A program made the position numbers and the translations under genes. Below the pieces are notes generated by a model. It ran no database searches, had not been told where the DNA came from, and worked only from the letters and a program-made list of their open reading frames with translations. Positions 19,508 to 45,775 of a DNA stretch of 64,000 nt are shown here, piece after piece. Source of the DNA: Botryllus schlosseri (Eukaryota); the NCBI GenBank assembly GCA_051294905.1, contig CM119371.1, positions 28,088,001 through 28,152,000 on the forward strand, written 5' to 3'. Numbering within the stretch: position 1 is the stretch's first letter; each line of letters opens with the position of its first letter.

Positions 19508-20022
19508 ATTCTCGGTAATGGCCATTCTCGGTGGTGTCCATTCTCTGTAATGTACATTCTCTGTAATGTCAATATTCTCGGTAATGTCCATTCCCGGTAT
19601 TGTCAATATTCTCGGTAATGTCCATTCTCTGTGGCGTCAATTCTCGGTAATGTCCATTCTCTGTGGTGTCCATTCTCGGTAATGTCCATTCTCTGTGGTG
19701 TCAATTCTCGGTAATGTCCATTCTCTGTGGTGTCAATTCTCGGTAATGTCCATTCTCTGTGGTGTCCATTCTCGGTAATGTCCATTCTCTGTGGTGTCAA
19801 TTCTCGGTAATGTCCATTCTCTGTGGTGTCCGTTCTCGGTAATGTCCATTCTCTGTGGTGTCAATTCTCGGTAGCGTCCATTCTCTGTGGTGTCCATTCT
19901 CGGTAATGTCCATTCTCTGTGGTGTCCATTCTCGGCAATGTCCATTCTCTGTGGTGTCAATTCTCGGTAGCGTCCATTCTCTGTGGTGTCCATTCTCGGT
20001 AATGTCTATTCTCGGTGGTGTC
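19508..20022 (-). repeat. Same 16-bp minisatellite, inverted (right arm)
   Basis: ggtaatgtccattctc / tgtggtgtcaattctc repeats. Confidence 0.95.
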
Positions 20023-23189: not shown

Positions 23190-26100
23190 CGCGCGTGTGT
23201 TGTACTTATGTACTTTTGATACAGAGGTACAGAAGTCATTGAAATTGTCGAGGCAGTGACCACAATGGTATAGATACATAAACTTGGTGATTTCTAGTTT
23301 CCGCGTATGTTTTATATTTAGGACACCGAATTTTTCGAGCAGTGATTTGTTGGACAGACACACATCCTAGTCATTTTGGGGCCTTGGCTATGATACGGAG
23401 GATATGATGTTGTAGTTTTTGCAGTGACTTCAGTGCGCTTACACTGGCAGCTCCCCTCCCCCAACAGATGATGTCATAATGTAACTTTGATTGGAATAAT
23501 GATCTAAAGAGTATCAGAAGTATACCCAGACGAGCATGTACTGTCTAAGGTTGAACAGCAGGCCACATAGTTCCGTGATAATATTTTCTTTTCTTGCTAT
23601 TGAATGTGACTCTTCCATGACATGTTCGAGTCTAGTAAGACCCCAAGGCATTTCGCATTTTCCGAGTCGGAAATAGGTTGACCTGCGGTTAGGTTATTTT
23701 TATTTTATTTTATGGTTAATAACTGGGATTTCGCGGAGTTGACTAAAATAATGTTGTGGGCTGTCTACTCATGCACTTTGTGTATTTAATCACTGGTCAC
23801 AGCACCCGACTTAGCCGTAGACGACAAGTAAGAGATATTAGAAGACATAACAAACGGAGTGATTTCCATGTCGTGCAAGTTGTATATAAATGATCGATCA
23901 AAGTCCTCGACTTACTAGCTATTCTAGTAGTAGCTTGGATATCATACGACAAAGACTAATTGATTTGACGGTATTTGAGTGTGTGCCTGTGCCGCCTCCT
24001 TCGTATTTTAGAAGATCTATATATTAATATCTCACACAATGAAAAAAATCTTTTTGCCACTGTTGACTTTGTCCATCGAGTGTGATAACGCTTTTGTGAA
24101 TTCTCACAACAACCACGTTTAATGATTTATAAATTCCAATTGACCGATCAATTTCCAGCCACAATTCCTCGCAACCTTTGACATTCACATTGTAGAGCGT
24201 ACAACTGTCTTATGGAATTTATTCTTCAATGTAAATTCCAACACGTCCGTACGATTTCGGCACCGGGGTACACTCAAAGTTGTAGCCCGATATATGAACG
24301 TTCCGAGTTGATTCATTCGAAAAGTTTATTTCTGATACTGCCACAACAGTAAGTAAGTTCAGTTTAGTAAAAAGTTCATTTAGTCGATCACGACAGGATG
24401 GCATCCCTTTGATATTCGTACCAAGGAAACTTATTTGCTTGTCTTTCAGGGCTCGTAGAAGTGATGCTGTTTTTGATATAGATTGAATTTCATTTAATAA
24501 TAAGCGGAAAGCAGTTGTTATTCATGATTCCGAGTTGACCCAGATCCCATGTCGGCGAGTTATGAGCTTAGTGTGCGGTAGCGTTTTTGTTTTCGGATTC
24601 ACGCACGTTGAGTTAATCCAATTACGACGTCCTATTCCGCTGGGAACCAAACACTTACAGCAACATCAGCAGCATGAATTGAAGCATTATCGTCAACCTT
24701 TATTAGTTACCAATATCAGGTGACGTCAGACCAGATTACTCTTAATAATTGTCCGAAGATTGGCGAGATTTATTGCAGTCGATGATAACCCCCGATACGG
24801 CAATTTCAGTATAAAATTAATAAGTCGTTGATTCCATATTTCCTGATGCTATTTCCATCCTGTCTTTTCATTATATCGCAGACTTGTGGTGTTTTGAAAC
24901 GATGAAATTTTATGAATAAACTGAACTGAACGTCATGAATAACGTAGCCAATAACATCTGGCAGCCGGCACATGGTGGTGTTACGGCTGGCTAGTGCTCG
25001 ATTAGACGATTACTGATCGATAGATGCCGTGTGGCTACTATAGTTTGTTATCGTAGGTCCCGAATAGCTCTTTATTCGAGCTATTCTGCCACACAACGCT
25101 ATAGCAAGGGCAAGTTTGATCAGATCCGCAAATGTGCACAGCGTTAGTGAAAGTTACAAGTAGCTTATTCATTATTTCATTAAAATTGAGATCTGATATC
25201 GTGGTGAACTAGCCGTCTAACTGACACAGACAGATGACTCTGTAATTCGCATCTCGGCATTTGGATAATGGTAACATAATTCGTAGGATGGAGCCAGCAT
25301 CATAGTTTGTTGAAGAAATTTTTGCAGCCAGTGAAAATTGTCTTTCTTTACGGATCTCAAATATGGTATCCCTGCGTAAAGTCTATTTGCTGACATACAG
25401 CAGCATCAGGCTACACGCTGCATAATGGTATGATCCGAACGTGATTACCCAACGACATAGTCAAAATGCATAAAGTCAATGGACCCGCTTGCAGGTGATA
25501 TCATCACAATCTCAGATAATCCAGCTATAGCCAACACAGCTGCTTTTAAGGTTAGTCGTATATTTAACTCTTTTTTATGACTTTCATGTTCCAGTTTTGT
25601 GTTATTTTATATTTAAACTACGATTGGCCTGCTTTTCAGACGGACGATATTGATTTTTCGTGCGTCAGCTGATTATTAATATCGACTGAAAATCAGTCTC
25701 GCTTCAACTGTTTTCCTTTTGCTCGTAATACTTCATAATCGCGTAAGTCTGACAGGAAGTGTCACTAAATGAAAGCGTATAGTACTTTGATTAAAAATTT
25801 ATAGAGTTATAGACCTCTCTATACATGATCTGATATTGTGAATTGTGATGTATGATAGATATACAGATTTGTATCTGGAAACCGTGCTGTATTGAACCAA
25901 CCTGGACATAACTCTGTTGTACTATTTTCTTAGATCGATTTTGTTTACTTTAACTATTAGCCTACTCACATGCTCCAACTCTGTCGATGCTTAATGCTTT
26001 CTAATAGAAATTGGTATTCAAGTATAGATACTCATCACTGCCAGCTGCCACGGGGAAAATTGCATAAAGTTACTACTCATAGTCGTTTCGATACCCTCCT

Positions 26101-27425
26101 ATCTTTTCATTACATCGCAATCTTGTGGTGCATTGATTAGATTAAAAATAATAATAAAATGATATCGATGATAATAACAACTATGCGATGTAAACTCTGT
26201 ATGATCGTAACGGATTATTTCGAAAATAGCAGCTATTTTCATGGCCATTAGTTAATCTGTAGTTTTGGCATTCTCTGAAAATCAGTGCTAATACTTGGTA
26301 TCAATTAGAAATTACCGGTTTTATATTTGTTGTTGTTGTTGTTGTTGCTGTTGTAGTTCTACTTCTAGTTGAGTACTAGCAATAACTACTTTGGCCACCT
26401 CGGGGTGTGTTGTAGCGAAATAAGATCTTCTGTGGTGACGAAGCGTATTTTCATGCTGAAATAATTTGAAACTTTTGGCGCGATAAATAATGAAAGGCTT
26501 ATGTATCAGTCAATCAGACCTTGTTATTTAAAACTGCTGGTAAATCTTGACAATTACACGTTCGTATGAAACCGTGTATGCATATTGAGCCAACCTGGAC
26601 CATGTTCAGATGTGGTTAGTAATGAAATCCGTTAAGATTAGTGAATTAGCCTGCTCAGTAGGAGTTGTTCATTTTGACTATAGTAGCCCACTCGCGTGCT
26701 CAAGTAGAATATTCCCCCGCCACTTACAACAGATTTCACCAAATTCACCTATGTTTCGTGTTGTTGATGAAGCTTTCGTGTAGAAAATAGTATTTCGGTA
26801 GATTAGCATCACTGTCACGAGGGTAATTGCATAACAACCATGCGATGTAGACTCTGTGTGATGGCATCGAAATGTTTGAAAACAGCAGCAATTTCCGTGG
26901 TCATTAGTCCAGAGCTGGTCAAAGTAGTCACTCCCGCTACTCAAGTAGAAGTATAAGCAACGCCGTAATTTTTTACTGAAATATTCCAAGTCTAGTTTTG
27001 CCTAGAAAACTGAAAACTGTCTAGCTCTAGCAGATGCACAAAAAGCCTAAAATAATAACCACTTTAAGAAGCAGTGCAGGTAAACAGATTCTACTTGAAG
27101 CACATCGAATGTAGAAGCACTTCGTTACTGCCTACCTATGCGTTGGTCATTCTGCGCTGATCGTGAAGATGCATATATAATATACCTTCAGACTACTTAC
27201 TTACACGTGTCTACTTGACCGCATGTGGCTCTGTTCTATCGAATAGTGATCTTGTCGTTTGTTCTTGTAGTTGTTGTGGTATTCATGGTTCTTGTCGACT
27301 ACTATAGTGCACTATGCCAATTTCCATCATTTTTATTCAGTAGCTGCGGACTTGTAGCACGGCAAACTTCAAGACTTTTGTAACACACCGCCTACATGGA
27401 TGGAACGGTGACGAGGAGTCTATAT

Positions 27426-28587
27426 CAGGGGTCACCTTGCACGCGGCGCGCGACCTGATTTGAAATTTCGGAAGAATGCTTAGTAAAGCATTTTAAAATT
27501 CTGAAATTGGAGATTGGAGATTGGAGATTGGAGATTGTTTCCAAGCAAACAACTAACGTCAATATCGATTCTTTAGTCCAGGGGGGGGCAGCCTTCTGCA
27601 GTAGAAGATAAATTATATGCCCCCGTCGATACTTCCTTATATTACAGTGGTTCCCAACCTGGGGGCGCGCCACCCTTGGGGGCGTGAAAGCTCTGAAGGG
27701 GGTGCAAAAAAGCGGTCAACTGAAAAAAAAATTCGCGCATTGCGCGATTTACCTCCAATTCATGCGTGTTTCTCTATATATACACCGAATTTCATATTTT
27801 TCAATTCTCTCATCAACAGTTAACCTTCCATGCCATGAACAATCTGTTGGGGTTGCTAGCATCCCGGTTGGACTTTGTGATATGACAATAAGGGGCGTGA
27901 AATTTTACACGATCATTAAGGGGGGCGTGTCTAAAAAAGGTTGGGAACCACTTAATTAGGATGTGTTGGCTGCCGTCAATATGCGAATTGAATTTACGAA
28001 TTGACTTCCTAATTAATGAGAGGTTTGAAGTATTCTTGAAATCTCCTTCGCTCTATGCGTGGTCCAATGCGAGTTGATTCTCGATTTTAATATAGTATTA
28101 TATTGGCCTTTGTAATCTAAGTCCCAAAGTACAGATGCGCACAGCAGAGGAAAATGAAGTGCCCCATCAAGAATTACCAATTTGCAATCGTTTTCTCGTC
28201 ATCACGAAGGAAATCTATTTCTGGTAGGCGTAAATTTGGGTGAATCCAAAATCTATCCACTAATCCGACAATCCTGATGGGAGGTCAAGACACAACAGCA
28301 TGCGACAAAGGGAACTAATAGCAATTGGCCCAATCAAAGATGCAGCACCGCAGCATTAATAACTTCCCAAAATTTTCGAAGACATCCCCTGCATCAACTC
28401 TACCGGTGAATCTGATCACATGGGCTGAGAAAGGACGTATATTTGATAGTAATATGTGAAACTATACTTATATTATTGACGAAATTCAATCATGGATAAC
28501 AATAAATTTTCGCGCTTGCGCAACTACGAAACGCGCATACGAATTTCGAAATGTGGCCCGCGACCCATTTTGAGTTGGCGACCCCTG
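27426..28587. mobile_element. hAT MITE upstream of ZF1, containing a second MITE (27645-27953)
   Basis: TIR caggggtc(a/g)cc; TSD gtctatat/gtctaaat; empty site at ~41478 in the paralogous block. Confidence 0.88.
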
Positions 28588-28847
28588 GTCTAAATAAATC
28601 TCGAACACTTGGTTAGGAATTCTGGAGTCCAGCTCGGTCGGACTCAAACCCGCAATCCATTGGTGTTAAAAATGTGGGCTATATCACTATATGAAATCTC
28701 GCTACCTATAGAGATCTTATGTGACTTGAAAAGAGACTTTTCATGTAATCTTATGTTCATTTTAGAACGCTGCATTAGACAGGATTACATTATATTAAAT
28801 TATAGAGGCAGTGCAGTTAATAACAAAAAATTTTGGCCAAGTCGGAA

Positions 28848-30068
28848 ATGACCCATTCTCAAAGTCATAATGACCGCAATGAAAATAAATGCAAGGTTTG
28901 CGGAGAAGGATTCATCAACCGGTCTAGCTTGGGACTACATATGAAATTTCACGCTGCACTCAACGACTTTGAGTGCTACATGTGCGGAAAATCATTCGCC
29001 ACCAAATATAGCATGAAAATGCACATGAAAATTCACTCCGTTTCGAAAGAGTTTGAGTGCGACATATGTGGAAAAAGCTTTTTGCAAAAATCATGCCTGA
29101 AAACTCATTTTACGCGCCACACGGGAAAGAAAGACTATAAGTGCGACATATGCGGGAAGACATTCAGCAGCAACTCCCAAATGAGAGGACACGAAAAAAA
29201 TCATTCCGCAGTAAAACAGTTTGAGTGCGAAATCTGCGGGAATGGCTTCGTAAGCAAGTCTACTTTTAGGGAACATTATTTGCGTCATACAGGAGCGGCG
29301 AAAGATCACGAGTGTCAAATATGCGGGAAAGGTTTCGAGAAAAAATCGAACCTGGAAACACATTATTTGATTCACACCGGAGAAAAAGAACACAAGTGCG
29401 ACATCTGCGGGAAAGCTTTTCGTAAGAAGTCGCACATTAGGGAGCACATGAAGAGGATACACTCAAATACGAGAGAATATGAGTGCGATATATGCGGGGA
29501 AACTTTTGTGCACGGGTCTCACCTGAAATATCACTATTCCGTCCACATGGGACCAGGATACCTTTGTGAAGTATGTGGGAAACCGTTTGTTATCAAATCC
29601 AAGATGAGAAGACATATGAATAGTATGCACTTCGGATTGAAAGAATTTGAGTGCGACATATGTGCGAGACCATTCGCCGCGAAATCCGTCATGAGAAGAC
29701 ACATGAAACTTCACGCCGGATTGAAGGAGTGCGAATGTGAGATTTGTGGTAAAGCATTCCATTCGAAGTCGTACGCACAGAGACACACTGAGTCGGCTCA
29801 CTTAGAAGCGAAAGGATATGAGTGCGACACATGCGGCAGTGTCTTTCGACATAAGTCTAACCTCGTAGCTCACTACTTCATCCACATGGAAAAGAATTAC
29901 CCGTGTGCAATATGTGGGAAACTATTCAATGTCAAATCCTCATTGAAAAAACACACCAAGATTCACTTGGGAGTAAAAGACTATGAGTGCGAGATTTGCG
30001 GAAGGACATTTGGTTCAAGGAGTTGTATTGTCCGTCACTTTCGAGTTCACGGAATCGACAGGAAGTAA
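28848..30068 (+). CDS. Tandem C2H2 zinc-finger protein ZF1 (14 fingers, ~406 aa, single exon, no visible effector domain)
   Basis: Uninterrupted ORF with 14 C-x2-C-x12-H-x3/4-H units and TGEK-like linkers. ATG at 28848 aligns with the ATG of both paralogs; in-frame TAA at 28821 upstream. Confidence 0.93.
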   Translation: MTHSQSHNDRNENKCKVCGEGFINRSSLGLHMKFHAALNDFECYMCGKSFATKYSMKMHMKIHSVSKEFECDICGKSFLQKSCLKTHFTRHTGKKDYKCDICGKTFSSNSQMRGHEKNHSAVKQFECEICGNGFVSKSTFREHYLRHTGAAKDHECQICGKGFEKKSNLETHYLIHTGEKEHKCDICGKAFRKKSHIREHMKRIHSNTREYECDICGETFVHGSHLKYHYSVHMGPGYLCEVCGKPFVIKSKMRRHMNSMHFGLKEFECDICARPFAAKSVMRRHMKLHAGLKECECEICGKAFHSKSYAQRHTESAHLEAKGYECDTCGSVFRHKSNLVAHYFIHMEKNYPCAICGKLFNVKSSLKKHTKIHLGVKDYECEICGRTFGSRSCIVRHFRVHGIDRK

Positions 30069-31823
30069 GGATGCGATCAGTCCGTAAAACAATTCAGAGG
30101 CGGGTCTCTTAAAAAAGAAATTACTTATCTAGATGGCCTGGTCCTATACAATTGAATTAGTCACATTCAGACGACTGAAATTGGAATCTAACAGGACTAC
30201 AATGACCGTGTTATTTTCAAATATACATTGGGGACTAGCCTACATGATATTAACAAGAGCAATGGAATTCCACGCTCACGCTCGCTGATAGTCAGTGAGC
30301 GTTACTTATGAGGATTTATCGACGATTCGTACTTCGAGTTCTTTTCCCCTTTGTGATTCAGAACCATTCCGTATCGTCAGACTTGTACAAACAACTTGAT
30401 TTTCAAATAGCGCAACTGAAACTAGAACTACATCGCAACTATAACTAGAATTAGAACTACCCAATTTCCAAAATCCGCAACTAGAACTAGAACTACTCAC
30501 ATTTCAAAACCCGCAACTAGAATTCGAACTAACAAGATTAGAAAATCTCCAACTATACTAAAACACAACTAATAAATAGATCAGTGTTTCTTGACCGGTG
30601 TTTCCGGGTGCACAATCTAAGTAATGTATCAACCAGGGCTTTGGAGCAGCCGTAAATTTAAACTGCTCCAGCTCCGGCGCTCTCTTCTATCATACATTAG
30701 CTCCGGCTGCAGCTCCGGAGCCGCATTATAACCACTGCTCCGGCTCCGGCTCTGAAATTATCGAATAGTCCTGTCTATATCAGGGGTGGCTTACAAATGT
30801 GGCCCGCGAGAGGGTTTTGCGTGGCCCGCGAGGTAATGTCCTATCATATTATCGAAAATGAATTGCTCAGATTGTGAACTTGCAATGCCAACCAAAAATT
30901 ACAATTCTGGCTGCGACACTTGGGATGTTGATGACTAAGATATCAATTCCGACGCATTGGCAGATCCAGGGTCGAGTAACATTTTCAGTAAATCGTCGTA
31001 CATTACAATAAACTAAAATGATAGCGAATTTTTTCTTCACACTTCGCGTGTTTAATTGTTACACGATTTCTTGCTTGGTGGGCTACCCCCTACTGAAAAT
31101 GAAAAAAAAACGCCTGATTTACCCGATTGAGTCTAAGGCCCTTTTCATACCGGGGTGCCGGGAATAACATTTCTCGAAAATGTTTACCGGAACCTCTCTA
31201 TGTGAACATAACACTGGTGTTTCGGGGCGGTATGAACGCACTTATTTTCGGAGATTTTTACGGGACCGACTGAGTATGAACACGAATGGCGCAGCTGGGT
31301 TCCCAGAACGCTGTCAATCAAACTTTTAGTTACGGTAACGCGCTGTTCATTCCGACTGCTTGTATTTCGAGGTCAGCTACCTGCGGCATTTTGATCTTCT
31401 AGTGTAATGGTGTTGGGAATGTATTATTCTTGGATTTATATTCTGTATGCTCACAATACGTAGTCACTGACTACTAGTCAGCTTCTTTTTGCTGTGGTTT
31501 TGTAAACAGAGCACGGCTAAAAAGGTAGAACACCATCTCCAAATGATGCAGCATTGGGTGAGTTGCCTGAAAACTTTAGTAGGACTAATTTGTTACATCA
31601 AAGGCTAGTTTCTAACCACGGATATGTTGTGCGTAGGTTAGTCACCGTCATATACCCCTACTGAAAAGAGGATTTAGTAACATCTGCTTTGATAGTGGCA
31701 GCACAGCAGAGAATGATGTCCTTAGCTCTGAATCACTAACCAAAATTGAAATTGTATCAACGGGCTGGTAAACCATCGTACATCATCCAAGCCATAATTT
31801 GGTTTTCACCTATGCCTTCATTA

Positions 31824-32410
31824 TAGAAATTAAACATGGAACGGCAACGACCGATTTTGCAGCTTCGTTCCGCTTCGCCGAGGCTGGAGTGGAGAGTGGT
31901 TTTGCGTAAGTTGACTGTAGGATTTCTGGCAATCCAAAAGCTATCTTCCCGAGCACAGAAATTATTGAATCTGGTCTTGATCGAAAGCCACTGTTGCACC
32001 GATTCCGAAAATATAAAGTAAAATAATGATCAGGCACTGATCCACCTAGAATCCGTCCTCCAAGTCGAAATATCGGCATTGTTCGAACAATCGGAGAGTC
32101 GCAACGGGTCATTGTTATGGTCATTGTGTTGCGGTTACCCGATTTTTCTGAACAATGCCGATATTTCAGACTTGGAGGGCAGATTCTAGGTGGATCAGTG
32201 CGTGATCATTATTTAAATTTATATTTTCGGAATCAGTGCAACAGTAGCTTTCGATCAAGACCAGATTCAATAATTTCTGCGCTCGGGAAGATAGCTTTTG
32301 GATTGCCAGAAATCCTACAGTCGCTTACGCAAAACAATTCTCCTCTCCAGCCTCTGCGAAGCGGAACGAAGCTGCAAAATCGGTCGTTGCCGTTCCATGT
32401 TTAATTTCTA
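31824..32410. mobile_element. Near-perfect hairpin MITE (~280-bp arms, ~22-bp loop), TA-flanked
   Basis: tagaaattaaacatggaacggcaacgaccgattttgcagc... and its reverse complement ending at 32410. Confidence 0.88.
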
Positions 32411-32817
32411 TAGTTACAACCAAGTCATTCCTTTGTTATGCAATGCTAGGCAAGTGTAACTTAATCTGATCTTTCCGCAGGTCTAGATGGAGGATACTGA
32501 TGAAAAAGGTGGAACTGTGCAAGTGTGCATTAAAGTTTCTCTCATGAATAAAATGAAACAGCACAAACACATCTGGTTAAGCAAGAGCATTGTTTATTGA
32601 GAAAGTCACACAGGGCATTTCCGACGTCTGGGCCAGCGATACTTGGATCACCACCAGGACTTCATTGCGTATACCATCCTCTGTATCATTCTGGCCTTAA
32701 CGGATTGCAGTTTCTGAGAAAAGCCGGACACCGCGCCTTCAGTCGACCAAAATCTTTCAACCTTCATGTGTGCTTTGCTAAGTTTCTGAAAAAGCAATTG
32801 TGAATTTAAGGGCAGCA

Positions 32818-33088
32818 TCATCATCATTGGTTTATTAGCAATTTTATCAGTTCAATACACCACAAAAAATGCGATACAATGAATAGACAGGAAGATGTCG
32901 AAGCGACTTGGATTTGTCAATGGAATCGGACACCCACCTTGGCCTAGGCGTAGTAAAGAGGAGGCATGCACACTGAATGAAAGTAAAGAATACAGTATAG
33001 AAAAAGAAAGCGACAAGAAATAGGGCGGCATGTCATGGGAAGCGAGATCGATAGGTCAGTCGTGGTCCGGTAATCTTGAGGATGGACT
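32818..33088 (-). mobile_element. 5'-truncated LINE 3' end (related to the 21620-24930 LINE) with (ATG)n tail
   Basis: Aligns with ~21700-21890; absent from the duplicated copy at ~33455. Confidence 0.78.
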
Positions 33089-33776
33089 GCAGAAAGAAAT
33101 TTATATTACATATTTGAAATTAGCTTCAGTTTATGCTCTGTTTGTGTTTCAGGGAAAAGGCTTCATGAGCCGAGGCTGAAAGGGATAGGCTGCGTCATCA
33201 GTTATGTAGGCTAGTACGGAAACCTCTGGCTTCCAATCATTAAGTCATCCTGACAAACTTGAATGCAGCAAATGCATGTTTGGTACAAATGTTGCTGTGG
33301 TAATTTTTTACCCACCCATCCTCTGTATCATTCTGGCCTTAGCGGATTGCAGTTTCTGAGAAAAGCCGGACACCGCGCCTTCAGTCGACCAAAATCTTTC
33401 AACCTTCATGTGTGCTTTGCTAAGTTTCTGAAAACGCAATTGTGAATTTTAAGGGCAGCAGAAAGAAATTTATATTACATATTTGAAATTAGCTTCAGCT
33501 TATGCTCTGTTCGTGTTTCAGGGAAAAGGCTTCATGAGCCGAGGCTGAAAGGGATAGGCTGCGTCATCAGTTATGTAGGCTAGTACAGAAACCTCTGGCT
33601 TCCAATCATGAAGTCATCCTGACAAACTTGAATGCAGCAAATGCATGTTTGGTACAAATGTTGCTGTGGTAATTTTTTACCCATCCACAACACTCAGACT
33701 TGTACAAAGTACTGGAATTTTAAAATGCGCAACTTTAACTACCCAACTACCCAATTTTTCAAACTAGCAACTAGAA

Positions 33777-34404
33777 CAGGGGTGGTCAACCTTTTCAGCC
33801 AAAGGGCCACATTCGATGACGAACTATTGTGCGGCCCACTAGGCGCGCGCCAGACGCGAAAATTTTTTGAAGTTGATAAATTAATAATATTGTCACTTGA
33901 CTATATTGGAAGCCTGCAAGGACTGGACTATTCGGCACCTGGACATATCGATATCGAAAGCTTCGTCCAACATGCGTCAATCATTTTTTGCCTAGGTTTC
34001 ATAGTCGATGGTATTTCTGCGAGCGTAATCGGGAGGTCGCGAATATATATAGTTAGACTCAATCTGATACATTAGGCGTTCTTTCATTTTCACAAAGGGG
34101 TAACAATAAGCAAGAAATCGAGTTACAAGATGTTGCGCTAAGCGTGTAGAAAAATTTTACTTTTGATAAATCTATCGCAAAGTATTCTGCTTTATTGTAG
34201 TGTACGAAGATCAACCAAAATGTGACTGGCTCATAGATCTACCAATGCGTCGGAACTGATATTTCAGTCATCATATCTCAAGTGTTGCGGCCGGACTAAT
34301 CAAATTTTTTATTGGCCTTACAAGTTCACAATCTGTGCAATCCATTTTTGATAATACTACTTATTTCGGAAATTCACTCGCGAGCCACGGGTAGGCCGGC
34401 CCTG
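33777..34404. mobile_element. hAT MITE of the 30781-36514 family, inverted; deepest nesting level
   Basis: caggggtggtcaacc ... ggccggccctg; perfect TSD aactagaa, within an ACTAGA-repeat element starting at 33696. Confidence 0.85.
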
Positions 34405-34854
34405 AACTAGAACTACCAACTTCTCAAAATCTGCAATTAGAACTAGAACTACTCACTTTCAAATATCCGCAACTATAGAACCAGAAAGTATTCACTTTTT
34501 CAAATCCACAACTAGAACTACTTAGTTTTAGTAACCAAAACCAACTAAATGAGTGAGCCGGGTCACAAGTCACACCAAGTAACAAGTCGATCCCACTTTA
34601 ATAGTTTTGACTAGATTCAAGTCGAGTCATTTTCAATTCACCACCGAGTCAAATCCGAGTCCAACTCATCGAGCAGAGCGTCGAGTTCGAGTCATGGTTT
34701 TATGACTCGAGTCCGAGTCCAAGTCATTGTGTTGACTGCTCAGTTTCCAGTTTAAGTCTATTTTCCATCAATTCTTGTAGTGGTATGCTACGGTATGCTA
34801 TTCAAAAACTGGCTGTCATTCTGCCATGACAAATATAGAAATATTACTATGCAC

Positions 34855-35362
34855 TAGGGATGGGCAAAATCGGGTACCTGAGTGATTCGATTCTGAATCA
34901 CTTATTACGCTTCGAGTCGAGTATCAGTTCAGTATCATCATGATGACATCACAATACAATGTACTATGCCAAAATTCAAATGTGTAGGCTACCTTTTATG
35001 CCACCACAAAGAACATAACGCCTACTGTCCGTCACATTAAAGATACTTTGGTGTTTTTTCGACCATACCGATTTCATTGCACTGCTTGACAGTGTTACGG
35101 GATGATCATGACTTCGGAAATGTGTTATTTCCAGCAACGTTCGTAGCTTTGTACTATATCTCGTATGTTGCAACACGGCCAATCAAGGTTTCAAGGCTTA
35201 CTCAGTGGAAAATAGTATCAAAACTACGGTATAATTCTCATTAGTAAATCAACTTTCAGTATAATTTTAGTACTCGAAAAATAGTATTTTACTACTCGAC
35301 TCGAATCAATAAAGTTGATGCTCGATTCAGATTCGAGTACTCAATCATTGTGGCTAGCCCTA
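34855..35362. mobile_element. hAT MITE with gattcga/gagtac repeats
   Basis: tagggatgggc ... ggctagcccta; degenerate TSD ctatgcac/ctataggcac. Confidence 0.65.
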
Positions 35363-37896
35363 CTATAGGCACCAGCAATTATTTTTATTAAAATCAACTT
35401 GTGACAGTTGCCTTCATAAAATACATCTGATGTTTACCTGGATCTATAAACGATTGGCTTCATTGGCTAGCCTCCAAAGAGCGACAGCTACTCAGCAATC
35501 AAGAGAAATTGAGTTCGTATAATTTGCTGGCTGCTTTTCGTTATGGTCTCGAAGCTTGTTGCAGAGTATACCAAATGTTTCTCTCACGGATTTCTAGAAT
35601 TCCCTGGTTTCTCTGTACAGTATACATAAGATTAGATTTACCAAAACCATTATACAGCAACCACAAAGATAAACTGACTTTGTCGTACGCAGATGTGATC
35701 GGTGGTTCTTTTCATTCCAGGACTCTATCCTCTTTGCTGGCTTTCAGTTTCTACTCTCAGCTTCGGTTGATAATATACAAGCCATGAACATGCTCGGGCT
35801 CTATTACTGATACAGGTATATTGAGTATAGAGCCCCATACTCCATACACATCGAGAAGGCATATCCGCAACATCCCATAGCAAAAAGTTGGAGCCAATTT
35901 CTCCGCATCTCACGAATATGCCTCTTTCACGTCGTTTTCCACAAGCATATTACAACTGGAACACCCCACAGACATGGTTTCGTAACTGTCAACAAACACT
36001 TACGGAGAATCGCGTTCATACTGGCCATAATTTCCCGCGAATTTACCGAAAAAACGACCTGTATGAACAGAAGTTCGCGGTAACTCTAAATAGGTATGAA
36101 CGCGCTCATTTCCCGGAACTGTTTCGGTAATTTTTTCTCTATGTGAACATCGCCTGTTTCGGAACTTGTTCCCGAAAGAGTTTCGTAAATCCGGTATGAA
36201 AAGGGCCTAACTGTATTCGCAATTATGGAAGAAAGTCTTTTCGCGGTTGCGCTCGCATAAAATCATCGACGGTGAAATGTAGGCATAAAATGATTGTCGC
36301 ATATTATCGGAGGCCTTCGATATCGATGTGTCCAGACGCCGAATAGTCGTGTCCTTGCAAACTGAGTCTAGCGGGTGGTATACAATAGACCCGCAATACT
36401 CACCTAGTTTATTTATAAACTTAGAAAGTTTTACCGGCTTGGCGTGGCTAGTGGACCGCGCACTCGTTCGTCAATTGCATCTGCCCCTTTAGCCGTAAAG
36501 GTTGGCCATTCCTGGTCTATATAGATTACTAATCTACTAATAGGTTAGTTATCTATAGTAATCAGAGTCCGTCAGCCGTCAGTAACATCCGATGTAGCAA
36601 CAAAGACATATAGGGGCCGGCTTGTGACTTCATACTGAATACTTGTCAATTGTCGACAACATCATAGTTCCACTAGAACGCAATTTACTCCATGCCATTG
36701 CTGTGCACAACATTAAAATTCAGGCCTGGTGGCTGGCGTTCAATTATGATAAATCAGCAGATGTGGTTGTTGTATATATAATAGCATTTTATGAAATAGG
36801 TCGGAGCCGGAGCTACTCCTCAAATAACGGGCTCCAGCTCCGGCTCCGGCTAAATTTTATGTAGAGCTCCAGCTCCGGCTCCAGCTCCGGTGAAAATGCA
36901 CGGCTCCGGGGCTCCGGCTCCGGGCTCCGGCTCCGGCTCCAAAGCCCTGGTATCAACTGTGTAGTTATTCAGTAATGCAGTGTTGGGACGACTCGAGTCA
37001 TTGAACGCTCTCTCATTCGAAATTTCATGCTGGTGACGTCATATTCTGTGGTACGATTGTTGATGTTCGTCGTATGCGTAATCTCTATTTTAAAAAAGAA
37101 ATCGATATGACATGGGTAAATTTAAGTCGGGATTATGACATATAAGCGCGCAGTTACTTGATCGGCTGAGGCTCCGAGAAGTCGAATTAGGAAAACCTGC
37201 CAGTGAAACCACCAAAACAACAGAACCATATTACCACGCTACACACCGCTCGGGATATTGACCAAGCTCTAACATTCTATACATTTTGGTGTCTTAATTT
37301 AATAGAATGAAGTGTCTGGGGGTTGGTGTGATTAAAAACAGTTAACAATGTTTCTTGTTTACCATTGTTTTCAATAATTACGTGGCGTAAACAATAACAC
37401 ATCTACCTAGATCAGTGGTTCCCAACCTTTTTGTCTTCATTCCCCACTTCAGATTTATTCCGAGTCTTCATTCCCCACTACCCTAAATTATCGTCGTATT
37501 TCCTTTCAACTATTGTCATTGCGGGGCAGATATTTGTTTGTTTGAGTGCGCAAGACACACAACCACACCAGTACGCAAGACAATCGCCTATAACTGCAAC
37601 ATAAAACCTATTGTGAACAGATACAGGTAACCCTCCAAATTCAGCGAATTCTTTATTATACGTCATGGTCGTGCTCTATGCGTTTGTGACGCCATCATTG
37701 GTTATCCAGAGTCAATATGAGTTTTTGTGAACAACACGAAATACAACTTTCGATATACATACATTCCAGAGCAGTTAACTGGTAACGGTAATCGTTCATG
37801 TGTCTCCATAAATATGTAGACCATCCTGCATATAATGTAAACAAATGCGTCTATTCCCCACCAGAAACCATTAAATTCCCCACCGTTTGGGAACCA

Positions 37897-38452
37897 CTGG
37901 GTTGTAACCGAGTAACAAGTCAATCTCACTTATATAGTTTTGACTCGAGTCAAGTCGAGTCAATTCCAAGTCACCACCGAGTCAAGTCCGAGTCCAAGTC
38001 ACGGAGTAGCATGTCGAGTCCGAGTCATAGTGTTTTGACTCGAGTCCGAGTCCAAGTCATTGTGTTGACCGTTCAGTTCCGAGTTAATGTTACATGAAAC
38101 CAACTTTTTACAACTCTGCTCGGTGATATCGAATGCTTCGCACTCATAATATACTAATTTTTTTCACTTTTAACGGTTTCTGGTAACATATTCAAGTACC
38201 GGTACTGATAGACCAACAAATATTAGTGTAATAACTTCACTATTCTTCGAAAGTACAATTAAATGCCTGTCTCGGTAGGCCCATAGTCTCGAGTCATATG
38301 ACTTGGTCCAAGTCATGCGCAATGACTCGAGTACAAGTCGAGTCAATACACAAATTGACTCGAGTCGAGTCATTTTTCATTTTCAAGAAAATGACTCGAG
38401 TCAAGTCGAGTCGAGTCACCAAAAAATCGCGACTCGAGTCATTACAACCCTG
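37897..38452. mobile_element. hAT MITE of the GACTCGAGTC family
   Basis: ctgggttgtaac ... ttacaaccctg; full-length similarity to 53013-53591. Confidence 0.8.
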
Positions 38453-40514
38453 CTGTACCACCATTCTATCGCCTACATGCTATCCGTGCACGCTCAGCGC
38501 CTGGCGGAATAGCCGCAGATCCCAGTTTTCGAGTTTTCTGACCGGGTCAAGAAGCCGGACGCATCCCCATTATGTTATCTCGCTCGGAAGAGACAATACA
38601 AAACGGCAAACAAATTGGCCGAACAAAGATTAGTCACAATTGTCAACTCGAAAATGAGGGTGTAACAGCGCTCATCGTGAAAAGAATCAAATTGGGAACA
38701 TCCACGTTGCATTACACGCATTACACCAGTGGTTCTTAACCGACCTACCACGGAGCACTAGGGGGTGCCATGAGTCAGTCTCGGAGGTTCCGCAGAGGGC
38801 AAGATACACGCTCAAATTTCGCATATGATTTGTGATGATACGCATATCTTGACCATCATTGGTTGCATGCCCGATCTGTAGCCGAATTGTGACTGTTGTT
38901 GTGGTAGTAAGTACGTCGTATGCTGTGACGTGCGCAGAGGAGGTTGAGGTTTGTATTCGAAACCCAGAACTTCCGAAATACCAATGTTATCTCAAATTTT
39001 TATAAGCTTATTTGAAATGAAACAGTTGGTATCTCCATCTCGGTGTTGCGTTTCGGCCAAACAATACGATGTCACTTTGCAAGGCGGATTACCACCGCAT
39101 ATTAAAATTGGTATCTGAAGGGGAACCGCAGAAATCGCACTGATTTAAATATTGGGAAATATTGATCAATGGCTGCGAACGCGCACCGACAGTGTTACGT
39201 AGGAACAGGAAATGGTTGGCATAAATATACAATCGATTGGTGCAGCGCTGGCGTCGCGGTATATGAGAAGATCTCATGTGAGGTTTGTCGCATAGAGTGG
39301 ATATAATTCAAAGCTGCAGTTTGATTTGCGCATTAAAATCAATAAATCATGTAAGACGTGACTTACGAAAAGATACAGGAGTAAGGAAATGGATACCGCA
39401 GCACGTCGCATGGTTTTCTTACGCAGTGGCACTTCAAAGGATATTATTCATTCCTGGCGGGTGGGATAACTTTGTCATACTAATCAGTCGCTTCAGCAGT
39501 TGGCTAGCGTTGTCGAGTCGCAAGAGCAGTAGTGTCGTGAGTGCTTGGATATTATTTATCTCGTGCTCAATTCTCAGGGCATTACAGTCGTTATGCTCTA
39601 CTGATTATAATCCTGCATCATTCATGTCTAGTTCAAATTTCAAATTTGTGATTGAGGAGTTGAATTCCAAATGCTATATTACTAGGAGTTACAATTACTG
39701 CCGTTGCAATACTAGCAGCATAAATCGATGTACAATGTCATAATTTTCCATAGTCTACATACAGATCCGCAGATGTAGAGCAATAAACAGCTATTTATAA
39801 TGTTTATGCAGTATGCTGATTTCATGACATGGGCTCTTGTAAATGACATTCAACGGTAATTTATCTCGGCCATCGGAACAAAAACCTCTATAGATGTAAT
39901 AAGTCCCACCCTGGCCAATGATTTATCTGTGATAATAATATGATAATGATCAATGTCCAATTGTCCATGATCGAATGAGTTACTCTGTTGGCTGATCCAT
40001 GTGAAAGGTGTAGGGATTTAAGTCACCCATTTAGTCAATCAGAGCTTGTTATTTAAAACTGCTGGTATATCTTGACAATTGCGAGTTCGTATGAAAACCG
40101 TGTATACAAATTGAGCCAACCTAGACCATGTTCAGATGTGGTTAATAATGAAATCCGTTAAGATTAGTGAATTAGCATATTCACTTGTTGTTCACTTTGA
40201 CTATAGTAGCCCACTCGCGTGCTCAAGTTTATACGGAATATTCCCCCTCCACTTCCAACAGTTTTCAAACAAATTCACCTATGTTTCGTCTTGTTGATGA
40301 AGCTTTCGTGTAGAAAATAGTATTTCGGTAGATTAGCACCACCGTCACGAGAGTAATTGCATAACAACCATACGATGTAGAGTCTGTGTGATCACATCGA
40401 ATTGTTTGAAAACGGAAGCAATTTCCATGGTCATTAGTCCAGATGTGGTGAAAGTAGTCACCGCCGCTACCTCAAGTAGAGGTATAAGCAACGCCGTGAA
40501 TTTTTACTGAAGTT

Positions 40515-41085
40515 TAAGACAAGTATTCTAAAAAATAACCTCGATTTACCGCGGAATGTTTTGAAGCACGGTAGCAAGACATTTTGTGGTAATGTAACAT
40601 TACCGTTAAGTAAATGTAAATTTAACTTACACTCGTCCAGTATCTCACTTTACACGCCAGACTGTAATGTTACAGTCACCTCCGGTATATCCAATCTACA
40701 AGCTCTCCTGTATATTTGCGACCGATACTGTAATTTTACCGCTTATCTACAACATGACGTCCGTGTAAATCAGGATTACATACGAGCTTGCAAATTCACG
40801 TACATCCATACCAATCGCAAAGCAACGTGGTGCTAAAATATCGCAAAAATTTCTTCACACTCCCAAAACGACATTGGAAAAAACTGTAAATTCATTCATG
40901 ATTCACGAAGAAATGGTTATCGATGGAAAAGTATTGCTGCTGGAGGTCTAATTCTTCTTTAGGAGACATGCAGTAGGCTAACACGAGTGGTCTCGAGAAA
41001 AGTTGAATTAATATAATATAAATAATTCCACCACCGGACAAACTGCCAATTGTTTCTTTTTCTCGTCTTTATTCCTTCTGTGTAA
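40515..41085 (-). mobile_element. Possible LINE endonuclease fragment present only in the ZF2 block
   Basis: ~580-bp extra segment relative to ~26985; minus strand shows RRNK..GGGIIYI and IRPP APE-like motifs. Confidence 0.4.
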
Positions 41086-41740
41086 ATAGTTTTGCCTAGA
41101 AAACTGAAAACTGTCTACCTCTCGCAGATGCAGAAATAGCCTAAAATGATAACCACTTTAGAAAGCAGTGCAGGTAGGTAGATTTTACTTGAAGAACATC
41201 GAATGTAAAAACACTTCGTTACTGCCTACCTATGCATTAGTCATTCTGCGCTGATCGTGAAGATGCATCTATACCTTCAGACTACGTACTTGAGTATACT
41301 TGACCGCATGTGGCTCTGTTCTATCGAATAGTGATCTTGTCATTTGTTGTTAATATTGTTTGTATATGCTCATTTACACCATGCCAATTTCCCTCATTAT
41401 AATTCAGTAACTGCCTACTCGTAGCACGGCATACTTCTAGACTTTTATAGCACACCGCTTACACTGATGGACGAGGAGTCAAAATAAAGCTCCAACACTC
41501 GGTTAGAAATTCTGGAGTCGACCTCGGTCGGATTCGAACCCGCAATACATTGGTGTTTGAAATGTGGGTTATAGCACTACGATATCTTGCTACCTATTGT
41601 GATCTTATGTGACTTTGAAAAGAGATCTTTCATGCAATCTTATGTTCATTTTAGAACGCAGCATTAGACAAGATTATACACTATATAGTAAATTATAGAA
41701 GCAGAACAGCTAGTAACAAGATTTTCTGGCCAAGTCGGAA

Positions 41741-43027
41741 ATGACGCATTCTCAAAGTCATAATGACCGCAACGAAAATAAATGCAAGGTTTGCGGAGAA
41801 GGATTCATCAACCGGTCTAGCTTGGGACTACACATGAAATTTCACGCTGCACTCAGCGACTTTGAGTGCTACATATGCGGAAAATCATTCGTCACCAAAT
41901 ATGGCGTGAGAATGCACATGAAAATTCACTCCGTTTCGAAAGAGTTTGAGTGCGACGTATGTGGAAAAAGCTATTTGCAAAAGTCTTGCCTGAAAACTCA
42001 TTTTACGTGCCACACGGGAAAGAAAGACTATAAGTGCGACATATGCGGGAAGACATTCAGCAGCAACTCCAAAATGAGAACACACGTAAAAATTCATTCC
42101 GCAGTAAAACAGTTTGAGTGCGAAATCTGCGGGTATGGCTTCGTAACTAAGTCTAAATTTAGGGCACATTATTTGCGTCATACAGGAGCGGCGAAAGATC
42201 ACGAGTGTCAAATATGCGGGAAAGGTTTCGAAATAAAATCGAAACTGGAAATTCATTATTTGATTCACACCGGAGAAAAAGAACACAAGTGCGACATCTG
42301 TGGGAAAGCTTTTCGTAAGAAGTCGCACATTAGGGAACACATGAAAAGGATACACTTAAATACGAGAGAATATGAGTGCGATATATGCGGGGAAGCTTTT
42401 GTGCACGAGTTTCACCTGAAATATCACTATTCCGTCCACATGGGACCAGGATACCTTTGTGAAGTATGTGGGAAACCATTTGTTATCGAAGCCAAGATGA
42501 GAAGACACATGAATAGTATGCACTTCGAATTGAAAGAGTTTGAGTGCGACATATGTGCGAGACCATTCGCGGCGAAATCCGTCATGAGAAGACACATGAA
42601 ACTTCACGCCGGATTGAAGGAGTGTGAGTGTGAGATTTGTGGTAAAGCATTCCATTCGAAGCGGTCCGCACAGAGACACACTGAGTCGGTTCACTTAGAA
42701 GCGAAAGGATATGAGTGCGACACATGCGGCAGTGTCTTTCGACATAAGTCTAACCTCGGAGCTCACTATTTCATCCACATGGAAAAGAAGTACCCGTGTG
42801 CAATCTGTGGGAAACTATTCAATGTCAAATCCTCCTTGAAAAAACACACCAAGATTCACTTGGGAGTAAAAGACTATGAGTGCGAGATTTGCGGAAAGAC
42901 ATTTGGTTCAAGGAGTTGTATTGTCCGTCACTTCCGAGTTCACGGAATCGACAGGAAGAAAGGATGCGATGAGTCCGTAAAACATTTCAGAGGCGGGTCT
43001 CTTAAAAAAAATCACTTATCTAGATGA
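41741..43027 (+). CDS. Tandem C2H2 zinc-finger protein ZF2 (14 fingers, 428 aa), recent paralog of ZF1
   Basis: 33 aa differences from ZF1 over 406 aligned residues (manual count). 22-aa C-terminal extension because the TAA of ZF1/ZF3 is AAA here. Confidence 0.93.
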   Translation: MTHSQSHNDRNENKCKVCGEGFINRSSLGLHMKFHAALSDFECYICGKSFVTKYGVRMHMKIHSVSKEFECDVCGKSYLQKSCLKTHFTCHTGKKDYKCDICGKTFSSNSKMRTHVKIHSAVKQFECEICGYGFVTKSKFRAHYLRHTGAAKDHECQICGKGFEIKSKLEIHYLIHTGEKEHKCDICGKAFRKKSHIREHMKRIHLNTREYECDICGEAFVHEFHLKYHYSVHMGPGYLCEVCGKPFVIEAKMRRHMNSMHFELKEFECDICARPFAAKSVMRRHMKLHAGLKECECEICGKAFHSKRSAQRHTESVHLEAKGYECDTCGSVFRHKSNLGAHYFIHMEKKYPCAICGKLFNVKSSLKKHTKIHLGVKDYECEICGKTFGSRSCIVRHFRVHGIDRKKGCDESVKHFRGGSLKKNHLSR

Positions 43028-43334
43028 CATGGTCCTAGACAATTGAATTAGTCACATTCAGTCGACTGAAATCGGAATCTGACAGAACTACAATGACCGT
43101 GTTCTTTTCAAACGTACATTGGGGATTAGCCTACATGATATTAACAATAGCAATGGAATTCCACGCTCACGCTCGCTGATAGACAGTGAGCGTTGCTTAT
43201 AGTTGTTTTTCCCCTTTGTGATTCAGAGCCATTCCGCATCGTCAGACTTTACAAACTACTTGATTTTCAAATAGCGCAACCAAAACTAGAACTACTCGCT
43301 TTTCAAAACCCGCAACTAGAATTAGAACTAACGA

Positions 43335-45775
43335 GGGATGGTGTGAACCTCGGAAAGGTTCTGGTTGGTGTGAACGCGAACGTGACCCTCATGACGTCAC
43401 GTGACGTCATATTGCTAATTCCAACCCTACATTTCAGTGAAGTGAGAGTCCATGCCCCTATATTAATGTACACCAAGGGTCGGCAACCTACGGCCCGCGG
43501 GCCAGATCCGGCCCGCCAAGCGAAATCGTCCGACCCGCGACATAATAATTAGTTATCACACTAATGCGGCCCGAAGTTTCATAATGAGCTTCAATCTGCA
43601 GTGCAGCACTGCAAGAAAATAATGCGGCATTGGTACGATATAATAGTAGCCTGCATCGTATTAGTCAATTGTTACGCCATAAAACGAAGGTGGTTGAAGT
43701 AGGAGATGGAGTGGAGATAGACTAGACTGGATCAGTGCTTATCAATCTAGTGTATCTCGCAACCGAAGGTGTTCTATACTTTTTTAAAGGGTTTACCACT
43801 CTAATGGGGTGTGACTATAGAGGTGTCCTTCATTTGCTTAAAAAACGCTTGGAACATCTCAAACGCAATGACAGAATCTCAAACTGTTCAATTATAGATA
43901 ACAAGCCTCCATATGTTAGTTAGCCATCTATAGTTTAATTCTCCAGAAGGCATTGTGTGCCAAGACAACAAACCTGAATAGTGTTTTGGCCACAATGGTG
44001 AAAACTGGTAATATGAATTTTGTCTCATTAACTGAATCAGTTACGCCAGATATTACTAGGAGCAGAGAATCAATATGGCGATGTCCTGTAGGCCTATATC
44101 TGTCATGTTCGCGCATTAAGTCCAGCAGCTATGCTTACACGAGTGTATGAACTGAGAAATGAAGTACCAACTTTCCTCGAATATCGTCGACTCATAATCT
44201 TGTATTCGAAAATGGGTATCTCATCTTGCTTTCCTGGTACATTTAACGTCACATCTGAACAAATTGAATTTGCAACTTCAGGGGCAAAACTACTAAATAC
44301 ATGAGATGTTGAGGTGCATTCAAAACAAATCTGGGACTCTGGAAATGTCAACAGTACCAACACTACATTTGTAACTGTGATACGAAATTTAACTACTGAA
44401 TATTCACCCGCTTTTCCGACATTCCTTCTCTACAAAATGAATTCTGACTATTCAGTACTCCGTTTAATGTGGACGCCAATACCATTGCCTGAAAATTTCA
44501 AATGGGCCTTTCTCAAATGCGATGCAGTTGAATTGAATGACAAATTTCATACAAAGAGAATATCGCTGCATGACTTTGACAAAGAGTACGTTCTTGAAAT
44601 TGGTTTTTATCCCAGCTTGACAAACAATGCAAAAGAAATTGCATCGATTTTTGGAAGCACGTACGCATGTGAACAATAGTTTTGAAAAATGAAATTCACG
44701 AAGAGCAAGCTAAGATCACGTATTTCGGACGTCCATTTGGATAGGGTGTGATTATTCTTGTTTCATCTGACTTGTTACCAGAAGTTGAAAACCTTTCACG
44801 AAGCAAGCTGCGTCAATTGTAACATTTATTCTGTGTTGTTGAAGTGTAAATACATGTGTTTTCTGATTGGTATGATTGAGAATTGAGATTGCAGCAATGT
44901 AGGATAATATACCGAAGTGAGCGTAAAATATAGTACCAAGAAAAATTCCGGCCCGCCAAAAAGTTGTACGGCCCGCGACTAGCAAAAGGTTGCCGACCCC
45001 TGATGTACACGATACCTAGCGACGACTCGGGCCACATGATGCCACAATGCTGAAGTAAGTATTGACGTTTCAATCGTCGCCAAATGTATCAACTGGGACA
45101 ATCAAATGATATAATCATTCCATAAAATCAATATCTTCCGTCGATTTGCCAACAATCTCGACGAGGACTTGCCAGGGAATATAAGCTTACGCCTTGACGG
45201 TATAGAGGCAAGACCGGACTATGTATTCGGCGTATGAGTATTGCTACGTTGATATTGAGCGGAGTGTAAAACGGTTTTGCTATCGATATTGACCAAGTTA
45301 TACAGCAGTAGCCAACACCACATTCGTAGCCAACATATGAAATCAAGATTGACCCCATACGCCTACTAGATTTTTTACATCAAACAAAGATGTCAATTCC
45401 ATTGATTGGTTGAATAAGAGTCATTCGCTGACTACCTACAAGCAGTGTATTTCGCTCTTGATGTTGTGTGATTGCGAGTCAAGCTCACATCAGAGAGTTA
45501 CTTAATATTCGAGCAAACTTTTTTAACAAAGCAAGAAAATTTTTTGAGATTGTTTAGTGTTGAATATTATATGCTGCCCGCGCCAGGCAGATAGTGTTCC
45601 GCAGTTGAAATGCAATAAATTTCAACCAAAGATGGTATACTGAAGTGAAAATTGTAATATATGAAAAAGGTTCACAGTGCAGAACCTACCAAGGTTCGTT
45701 TGTGAACGTCAACCTCTGAATTTCTGAGGTTCACACACAGAACACGAAAGTGAACCTCACGTTCACAGCATTCCC
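43335..45775. mobile_element. Non-autonomous 8-bp-TSD element with GTGAAC subterminal repeats
   Basis: gggatggtgtgaac / gttcacagcattccc; perfect TSD actaacga; absent from the ZF1 block. Confidence 0.85.
43474..45002 (+). mobile_element. hAT Charlie/SPIN-type deletion derivative with transposase remnant
   Basis: TIR ca(a/g)gggtcggcaacc; perfect TSD atgtacac; LNLQLQGQ (~44265) and FGSTYACEQ*F*KMKFTKSKLRSRISDVHL (44650-44740). Confidence 0.92.

Follow-up and report, generated by a model that had tools for sequence, protein, structure and literature searches.

Do the two long zinc-finger genes of this locus diverge preferentially at the residues that would read DNA, and has selection driven those replacements? 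The stretch analyzed, called here the window, comprises 64,000 bases (C1:28088001-28152000, from an assembly of 495.5 Mb in 219 contigs; G+C around 40%). An earlier note, made from these letters alone, had taken its genes ZF1 and ZF2 for young paralogs diverging at DNA-contacting residues inside a transposon-saturated locus, i.e., for a candidate system like that of the KRAB zinc-finger proteins (KZFPs). The answer reached here is that the contrast of rates between contact residues and finger scaffold is robust and general in the gene cluster to which both belong, and that the diversification at the specificity residues is probably adaptive. The zinc-finger coding sequences (CDSs) of the window are the following:

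28848-30068, + strand: ZF1, single-exon CDS of 406 amino acids (aa), ending ...HGIDRK-TAA (locus L001)
41741-43027, + strand: ZF2, single-exon CDS of 428 aa, with the fingers of ZF1 plus a 22-aa tail (locus L003)
62602-63732, + strand: ZF3, with 12 fingers, a remoter relative within the cluster family (locus L006)

ZF1 and ZF2 each consist of a 14-aa leader followed by 14 fingers of the form C-x2-C-x12-H-x3-5-H. Both frames are intact and are built of C2H2 Krueppel-type units (PF00096/PF13465) joined by 7-residue linkers; the Pfam search of the ZF open reading frames (ORFs) returned C2H2 families only (PF00096 with E=1e-65 for ZF1 and 1e-61 for ZF2). The linker consensus in the cluster is H-[TA]-G-x-K-[ED]-[YF]-E-C, a Pro-less variant of TGEKP. 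The tail of ZF2 arises by a TAA-to-AAA stop loss (43025-43027) that is common to ZF2 and L002, one of the paralogs described below. ZF3 is identical to ZF1 and ZF2 at about 75% of nucleotides and 55% of protein residues.

The comparison of ZF1 with ZF2 was made with the first His of each finger numbered as +7 and with -1/+2/+3/+6 as the contact positions (n=56). Aligned without gaps, the two differ at 33 of 406 aa and 57 of 1218 nucleotides (nt). Replacements occupy 13 of the 56 contact positions versus 20 of the 350 elsewhere (Fisher odds ratio 5.0, p=1.1e-4), and 13/56 versus 18/266 when the 84 structural residues (Cys, Cys, Phe, Leu at +4, His, His) are set aside (p=6e-4). The count given in the earlier note was reproduced to the residue and is beyond chance; its reading of the helices of fingers 4-6, with Lys at +3 in all three fingers of ZF2, was correct, and so was the statement that the helices of fingers 1, 3, 7, 10, 13 and 14 are the same in both proteins. 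The three Lys residues are also found in the paralog L004, and one of them in L005, so they predate ZF2. Among the five close paralogs, 15 of the variable nucleotide sites set ZF1 apart from the rest (pattern 01111), which means that both lineages have changed, not that of ZF2 alone. Codons 1-210 differ by 34 nt and 21 aa, and codons 211-406 by 23 nt and 12 aa; that fingers 2-6 differ more than fingers 10, 13 and 14 is partly due to ZF2 being a mosaic with a breakpoint near codon 210.

A genome search with ZF1 yielded at least 221 matches (102 of 1274 first-look candidates were scored). Four other full-length loci show 89-95% identity to ZF1, namely L003 (ZF2) and three further intact paralogs (L002, L004 and L005); in each of the five close copies, the frame is open and encodes 14 fingers. 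Nine more members are 55-64% identical to ZF1. The related genes, at least 14, all lie at C1:27.98-28.47 Mb, a cluster of about 490 kb on a single contig, and 12-16 fingers were counted in 14 of the 14 members examined; beyond the cluster, the best genomic matches among those listed are at most 49% identical to ZF1. The best database match to the ZF proteins is 26-41% identical (120 proteins listed and 8000 candidates scored, with the 'longer' and 'shorter' length bands omitted). As nothing above 41% appeared, the family is lineage-restricted as far as that database goes. The tandem intact copies and the remoteness of the database matches bear out the idea of a young, lineage-specific paralog cluster; a lineage-specific tandem cluster formed through gene and segmental duplication, a trait of KRAB zinc-finger clusters, is thus present.

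Over the five close copies, variation affects 23 of the 56 contact positions; the figure for the remaining 350 is 51 (p=1.7e-5), and for the 266 of these that are not structural it is 46 (p=2.4e-4). At +3, 10 of the 14 fingers are variable, and several contact sites show three or four states (e.g., S/C/G/R at aa55 and Q/E/K/N at aa111). Counted as minimum changes, the contact codons have undergone 38.5 nonsynonymous and 9.5 synonymous changes, and the non-contact codons 55.5 and 32.5, respectively; for the latter, the nonsynonymous to synonymous rate ratio (omega) was 0.38, below neutral (p=4.6e-5). Between ZF1 and ZF2 only, the Nei-Gojobori method gave an omega of 0.37 for all positions and 0.27 for those other than contacts.

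The likelihood analysis was run with GY94/MG94 codon models, implemented by ourselves in Python, on the best tree, ((ZF1,L002),L005,(ZF2,L004)). With a single synonymous rate, omega was 2.08 at the contacts and 0.40 in the rest, and the contact value differed from 1 (twice the log-likelihood difference, 2dlnL=10.46, p=0.0012). In 45 null simulations with contact omega=1, the median was 1.02, only one of the 45 gave a statistic above 3.84, and the maximum was 5.57 versus the observed 10.46. Five codon-frequency models gave contact omegas of 2.08-2.31 (p=0.0003-0.0012) and +3 omegas of 4.1-5.4, the non-contact omega by likelihood being 0.40-0.47. Concerning the site models, M2a was favored over M1a (2dlnL=14.26, p=8e-4) and assigned an omega of 3.6 to 14% of the sites. 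The comparison of M7 with M8, which the earlier note had proposed as a check, favored positive selection (2dlnL=14.53, p=7e-4, five paralogs on a single tree). Twelve sites had an M2a posterior above 0.8, 10 of which are contacts. When two segments were each given their own tree, contact omega was 1.91 (p=0.005), with p=0.012 for M7/M8 and p=0.002 for M8/M8a. So, it can be said that the claimed concentration of replacements at specificity positions holds, with a non-contact omega of 0.27-0.44.

The same contrast can be measured against non-coding DNA, as the units that carry ZF1 and ZF2 have counterparts elsewhere in the cluster. The features involved are the following:

26508-27404, + strand: upstream part of the ZF1 unit (blocks A and B), non-coding
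27405-28587, no strand: insertion of 1.18 kb upstream of ZF1, shared with L002 only and missing in ZF2, L004 and L005
30632-37065, no strand: repeat DNA of 6.4 kb between ZF1 and ZF2, missing from the L002-L004 block
37065-41740, + strand: spacer 5' of ZF2, co-linear with the spacer upstream of L004, used as neutral yardstick
40033-41471, + strand: upstream part of the ZF2 unit (block A 40033-40511, block B 41087-41471)
40512-41086, + strand: insertion of 576 bp between blocks A and B, common to ZF2 and L004

ZF1 with its flanks is 95.6% identical to L002 over 3.75 kb, unbroken across 26705-30436, and ZF2 with its 4.7-kb upstream spacer is 96.6% identical to the L004 locus over 6.3 kb. The segment 26508-27404 matches 40033-40511 (89%) and 41087-41471 (84%), and is also found upstream of L002, L004 and L005. 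Since ZF1 goes with L002, and ZF2 with L004, in flanks and insertions, the ZF1-ZF2 pair and the L002-L004 pair, whose blocks are 340 kb apart, are duplicates of one another; the 6.4 kb of 30632-37065 correspond to 276 bp in the L002-L004 block.

In the flanks, ZF2 and L004 differ by 76 substitutions in 4669 bases (1.6%), and ZF1 and L002 by 75 in 2134 bases (3.5%). For ZF2 versus L004, the comparison is confined to codons 1-210, because the 3' half has a different history and is unusable against the flank. There, the proportion of nonsynonymous differences (pN) at contacts was 0.077 versus 0.016 in the flank (4.7-fold, p=0.004), and the non-contact pN was 0.41-fold that of the flank. For ZF1 versus L002, the contact codons show 8 nonsynonymous and 0 synonymous differences, with a pN of 0.061, 1.7-fold the flank (p=0.09), and a non-contact pN of 0.43-fold (p=3e-4). 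In six other pairs of the cluster, non-contact omega was 0.30-0.37, and contact enrichment reached p<0.05 in five. Over 172 fingers of 14 genes, the most variable positions include -1 (3.66 bits), +6 (3.51) and +3 (3.27), whereas Ser predominates at +2.

The copies have not evolved independently, as gene conversion among them is clear. Site patterns of the five CDSs are in conflict (15 join ZF2 with L004, ten L004 with L005, and four L002 with ZF2), and a single breakpoint near codon 210 improved the M0 log-likelihood from -2499.8 to -2455.1. The 5' half of ZF2 groups with L004 and its 3' half with L001/L002. Besides, ZF2 and L002 have both lost the ancestral stop and are identical over about 110 bases at that end, although their places in the two blocks, 330 kb apart, do not correspond, which indicates long-range conversion. 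A separate observation concerns the spacer upstream of ZF2, which recurs downstream of that gene (94%) and matches the one after L002 (93-94%); the segments concerned are 37065-37897, 46505-47334 and 45013-46101. It looks as though the tandem unit once had another gene copy, a third one, 3' of ZF2 that has since disappeared.

Concerning gene structure, every member has a conserved Met start in the context EM-x-H-x-Q and an end of the form ...R-[IV]-H-x-x-D-[RG]-[KER]. Two acceptor-like motifs precede the coding sequences:

28760-28765, + strand: TTTTAG, 82 nt 5' of the ZF1 ATG
41649-41654, + strand: TTTTAG, 86 nt 5' of the ZF2 ATG

TTTTAG followed by AACGC is an exact word found twice in the window (0.02 expected), and TTTTAG is kept even in the distant members L009, L011 and L014. 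The five close copies have an in-frame stop 27 nt 5' of the ATG. From the conserved TTTTAG and the in-frame stops that follow it, we infer a 5' untranslated region (UTR) intron and a protein made of fingers only. The conserved blocks of 26508-27404, 1.4-2.3 kb 5' of the gene, are a probable site of the promoter and/or of a 5' UTR exon. An upstream coding exon was considered and rejected: the sole shared frame (26807-26953 versus 40337-40483) differs at 16 of 49 aa, and its changes fall 10/5/11 over the codon positions, i.e., with no coding constraint, which indicates that the frame is not coding. An AG just 5' of the ATG was also discarded as acceptor, the phase not being conserved across the family.

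Neither KRAB (PF01352) nor ZAD (PF07776) matched the three ZF ORFs, 110 further ORFs of the window or, at E<=0.01, anything in the genome, in profile searches run without a positive control at the genome level. The window scan covered 110 of the 119 ORFs of at least 75 aa (the ZF frames themselves and six others that overlap them, nine in all, were set apart), a size limit that exons below 75 aa would escape. Pfam gave on these 110 ORFs four weak, unrelated matches, below or near the cut-offs, and no effector domain. Given the 14-residue leader and the upstream in-frame stops, a domain of the FiNZ type (see below) would be possible only on an unseen upstream coding exon. So, the description 'KRAB-ZFP-like' suits the mode of evolution and not the domain content, as neither KRAB nor another effector domain was found.

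Of the 60.4 kb that surround the ZF CDSs in the window, at least 27.4 kb (at least 45%) have another copy, either in the window itself or in unrelated loci totaling 89 kb, two of the latter having been picked as repeat copies. The 20 kb of 24001-44000 alone gave 43,017 first-look candidates in the genome. Between ZF1 and ZF2 lies the core of the 6.4-kb repeat DNA:

31133-36209, no strand: repeat core containing a many-copy element of about 3.9 kb

Its copies, among those listed, are 84-99% identical and lie on many contigs. The 3.9-kb element has no ORF of at least 230 aa on comparison with two copies and no Pfam match in its ORFs, and no reverse transcriptase, transposase or integrase domain was detected in the 110 window ORFs of at least 75 aa. 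The locus is therefore repeat-rich, and 'transposon-saturated', as the earlier note had it, overstates the case. Elsewhere in the window, short-unit arrays at 17449-18146 and 19506-20930 match on both strands with a step of about 32 bases and include inverted copies (17746-18146 versus 20930-20530) that are 100% identical over 401 bases, a large palindromic satellite-like structure. Window self-comparison also revealed internal repeats at 7069-8056, with units of about 100-300 bases that are 75-82% alike.

Transcription was considered by mapping four of 24 runs on region 26000-44000 at 98% likeness, namely X1 and three bulk RNA-seq runs from two studies (X5, X7 and X9; 1.1-1.9 billion letters each, i.e., 6-13% of each run); no RNA data set was listed as containing the stretch 26400-30500. 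The repeat core 31133-36209 is transcribed, with depths of 5-45 in the three bulk runs. Hundreds of their reads span a GT..AG joint (31556 to 32480), and minus-strand joints (CT..AC) connect 32785/33427 with 35438; most of the reads continue into unlike sequence, and other copies may be their source. About 85 bases within the insertion 5' of ZF2 (40890-40975) reached depths of about 30-35 on both strands in X7 and X9, with an accumulation of molecule ends at 40890 and loose ends that resemble adapter or related sequence elsewhere. This segment contains no tRNA by ARAGORN and no Rfam family; the searches were negative more widely too, for tRNAs over 24000-46000 and for Rfam families over the whole window. 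Run X1 contains short exact pieces at 29739-29827 and 42595-43163; it may be DNA and was not used as evidence of expression.

The host was held in the earlier note to be an invertebrate. This is supported, a tunicate being likely, by domain matches on contig C9: two glycoside hydrolase family 6 (GH6) matches, C9:15025585-15029521 and C9:15068570-15068854 (L034 and L035), lie 43 kb apart, and one of them is preceded at 3.3 kb, in the same orientation, by a cellulose-synthase domain. The fusion of GH6 with cellulose synthase is a hallmark of tunicate cellulose synthase, and two genes of this type may stand in tandem on C9.

How does this cluster compare with known poly-zinc-finger families? It shares with the KZFPs of tetrapods the long tandem C2H2 arrays in one exon, the lineage-specific duplicating clusters, the purifying selection on the scaffold and the concentration of replacements at -1/+2/+3/+6, a picture to which Emerson and Thomas reportedly contributed in 2009. 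It differs in that ZF1 and ZF2 have no KRAB match in gene, window or genome and that just 14 residues precede their first finger. For the KZFPs, the comparison relies on the abstracts of PMC4592553 and PMC10547255. The FiNZ genes of cyprinid fish are likewise a lineage-specific expansion without KRAB, and M2a is favored in both. For zebrafish FiNZ, Wells et al. 2023 describe M2a as favored in 4 of 7 clades, with base-contacting residues enriched for dN/dS >1 in two, and report a conserved N-terminal domain, expression at zygotic genome activation and derepression of transposons upon knockdown (PMC10547256). In contrast, the ORFs of ZF1 and ZF2 lack an N-terminal domain, and the genes number at least 14 here versus about 700 FiNZ. 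The insect ZAD genes are, like the present ones, a clustered, fast-evolving, lineage-specific invertebrate ZF family, with the difference that ZF1 and ZF2 have no ZAD match. According to the same source, base-contacting residues in D. melanogaster are possibly an exception to the high variability of other species, ZF gene and retroelement copy numbers correlate across animals, and only 11 of 236 human motif predictions matched experimental motifs (PMC10547256). So, the cluster fits the general animal picture and is neither KRAB, nor ZAD, nor, as far as visible, FiNZ. A text search of the literature found no paper on such a ZF cluster in tunicates, and the words tunicate, ascidian and Ciona are missing from the text of Wells et al. 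2023 (PMC10547256) as available here.

Several results weigh against adaptive diversification, and part of them would be expected if redundant, perhaps rarely expressed copies kept their fingers foldable while the specificity residues drifted. The earlier expectation of a dN/dS above neutral at contacts stood by likelihood (1.9-2.3) and did not by the tree-free minimum-change count (1.13 in the five copies, not above 1, p=0.52) nor with a free synonymous rate (1.38, p=0.39, with 3.6 and p=0.10 at +3). A contact omega above 1 thus depends on assuming one synonymous rate gene-wide; freeing that rate for the contact partition improved the fit by 0.7 log units only. By Nei-Gojobori, contact omega was 0.81 for ZF1 versus ZF2 and 0.73-1.08 in the six other pairs. 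Positions -1, +2 and +6 alone gave 1.0-1.5, not significant, and the focus on +3 was post hoc. One breakpoint weakened M1a/M2a to p=0.034, gene conversion being known to inflate site models, and the models were not those of PAML, dealt with five sequences only and yielded naive empirical Bayes site posteriors. Moreover, depth was 0 on the CDSs of ZF1 and ZF2 in X5, X7 and X9, a sampling that is too thin for calling the genes silent; the earlier note had named lack of expression among the outcomes that would refute it, and this result touches on that point. Finally, canonical TGEKP is absent from most linkers, so that all 14 fingers are assumed to bind DNA. On the other hand, relaxed constraint has against it the rejection of neutrality by the site models (p=7e-4 to 0.034), an omega of 3.6-5.4 at +3, contact differences that exceed those of the co-linear flank in one young pair, and contact codons hit repeatedly; the purifying selection on the scaffold of the five copies is also hard to square with functionless genes. 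It seems reasonable to regard relaxation as unlikely, and adaptive diversification as moderately favored over it.

Two other interpretations deserve attention. The copies could be repressors engaged in an arms race, retargeted to transposons, including the adjacent ones, as an analog of KZFPs. The repeat insertions are as old as the duplications (the 6.4-kb block lies between ZF1 and ZF2 and not in the paralogous block, and its core is 94-98% identical to copies elsewhere), and the repeat family between both genes is transcribed. The evolutionary signature resembles that of KRAB and FiNZ genes, with positive selection and enrichment at base-contacting residues, and a preference for binding transposons is predicted for ZF genes of octopus, sea urchin, weevil and zebrafish, in Wells et al. 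2023 (PMC10547256). The same paper also notes, however, citing Kasinathan et al. 2020, that Drosophila ZAD genes seem not to target transposons directly, so that fast-evolving ZF families need not do so (PMC10547256). In addition, KRAB and ZAD gave no match in the ZF ORFs, the 110 window ORFs and the genome, the three subsampled runs have no reads on either gene, and the proximity of repeats is uninformative in a window where repetition is so extensive. The arms race is so far an analogy only, possible and yet doubtful. A partial assembly artifact, in which the L002-L004 block would be the other haplotype of ZF1-ZF2 and two of the 'paralogs' would be alleles, is very improbable. Both blocks are co-linear over about 19 kb, with a non-coding divergence of 1.6-3.5% plus insertion differences, and tunicate haplotypes can diverge to that order. 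Yet they lie within one 41.8-Mb contig, the first genes beyond them on the outer side (L012 and L013) share no more than 91.7% identity, and the shared stop loss and identical 3' end of ZF2 and L002 reflect an exchange between non-corresponding copies. In any case, the artifact would leave the ZF1-ZF2 comparison and L005 untouched.

The explanation that we consider likely is that five young, intact copies, made of 14 fingers only, belong to a family being retargeted like other poly-zinc-finger families. The family has grown through duplications, both tandem and segmental, that copy a unit of about 3 kb (7.6 kb with spacer), and its copies swap segments by gene conversion. Selection keeps the fingers folded, with Cys, His, hydrophobic core and linkers at an omega of about 0.3-0.4, and the ligand-reading residues -1, +2, +3 and +6, foremost +3, are replaced at or above the neutral rate, from which each copy most likely binds a different long DNA site. 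This reading takes the ligand to be DNA, the replacements to be adaptive rather than merely tolerated, and the genes to be expressed somewhere, as we infer. A further step, that tunicates run a transposon-tracking system of their own, with finger-only proteins and without KRAB, ZAD or FiNZ, is rather unlikely; such proteins would silence their targets, e.g., by occupancy or through a finger-mediated partner, and ZF1, ZF2, L002 and L004 would be in the middle of retargeting, by point substitutions at +3 together with conversion of finger blocks.

The cluster extends to a tunicate a pattern that Wells et al. 2023 (PMC10547256) had proposed to be general among animals. Its assets are five near-identical genes and two co-linear pairs with their own neutral yardstick. 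If the diversification is adaptive, the cluster would offer a compact case for studying what drives the retargeting of zinc fingers in a KRAB-less chordate, and would let one ask whether a finger-only protein can repress.

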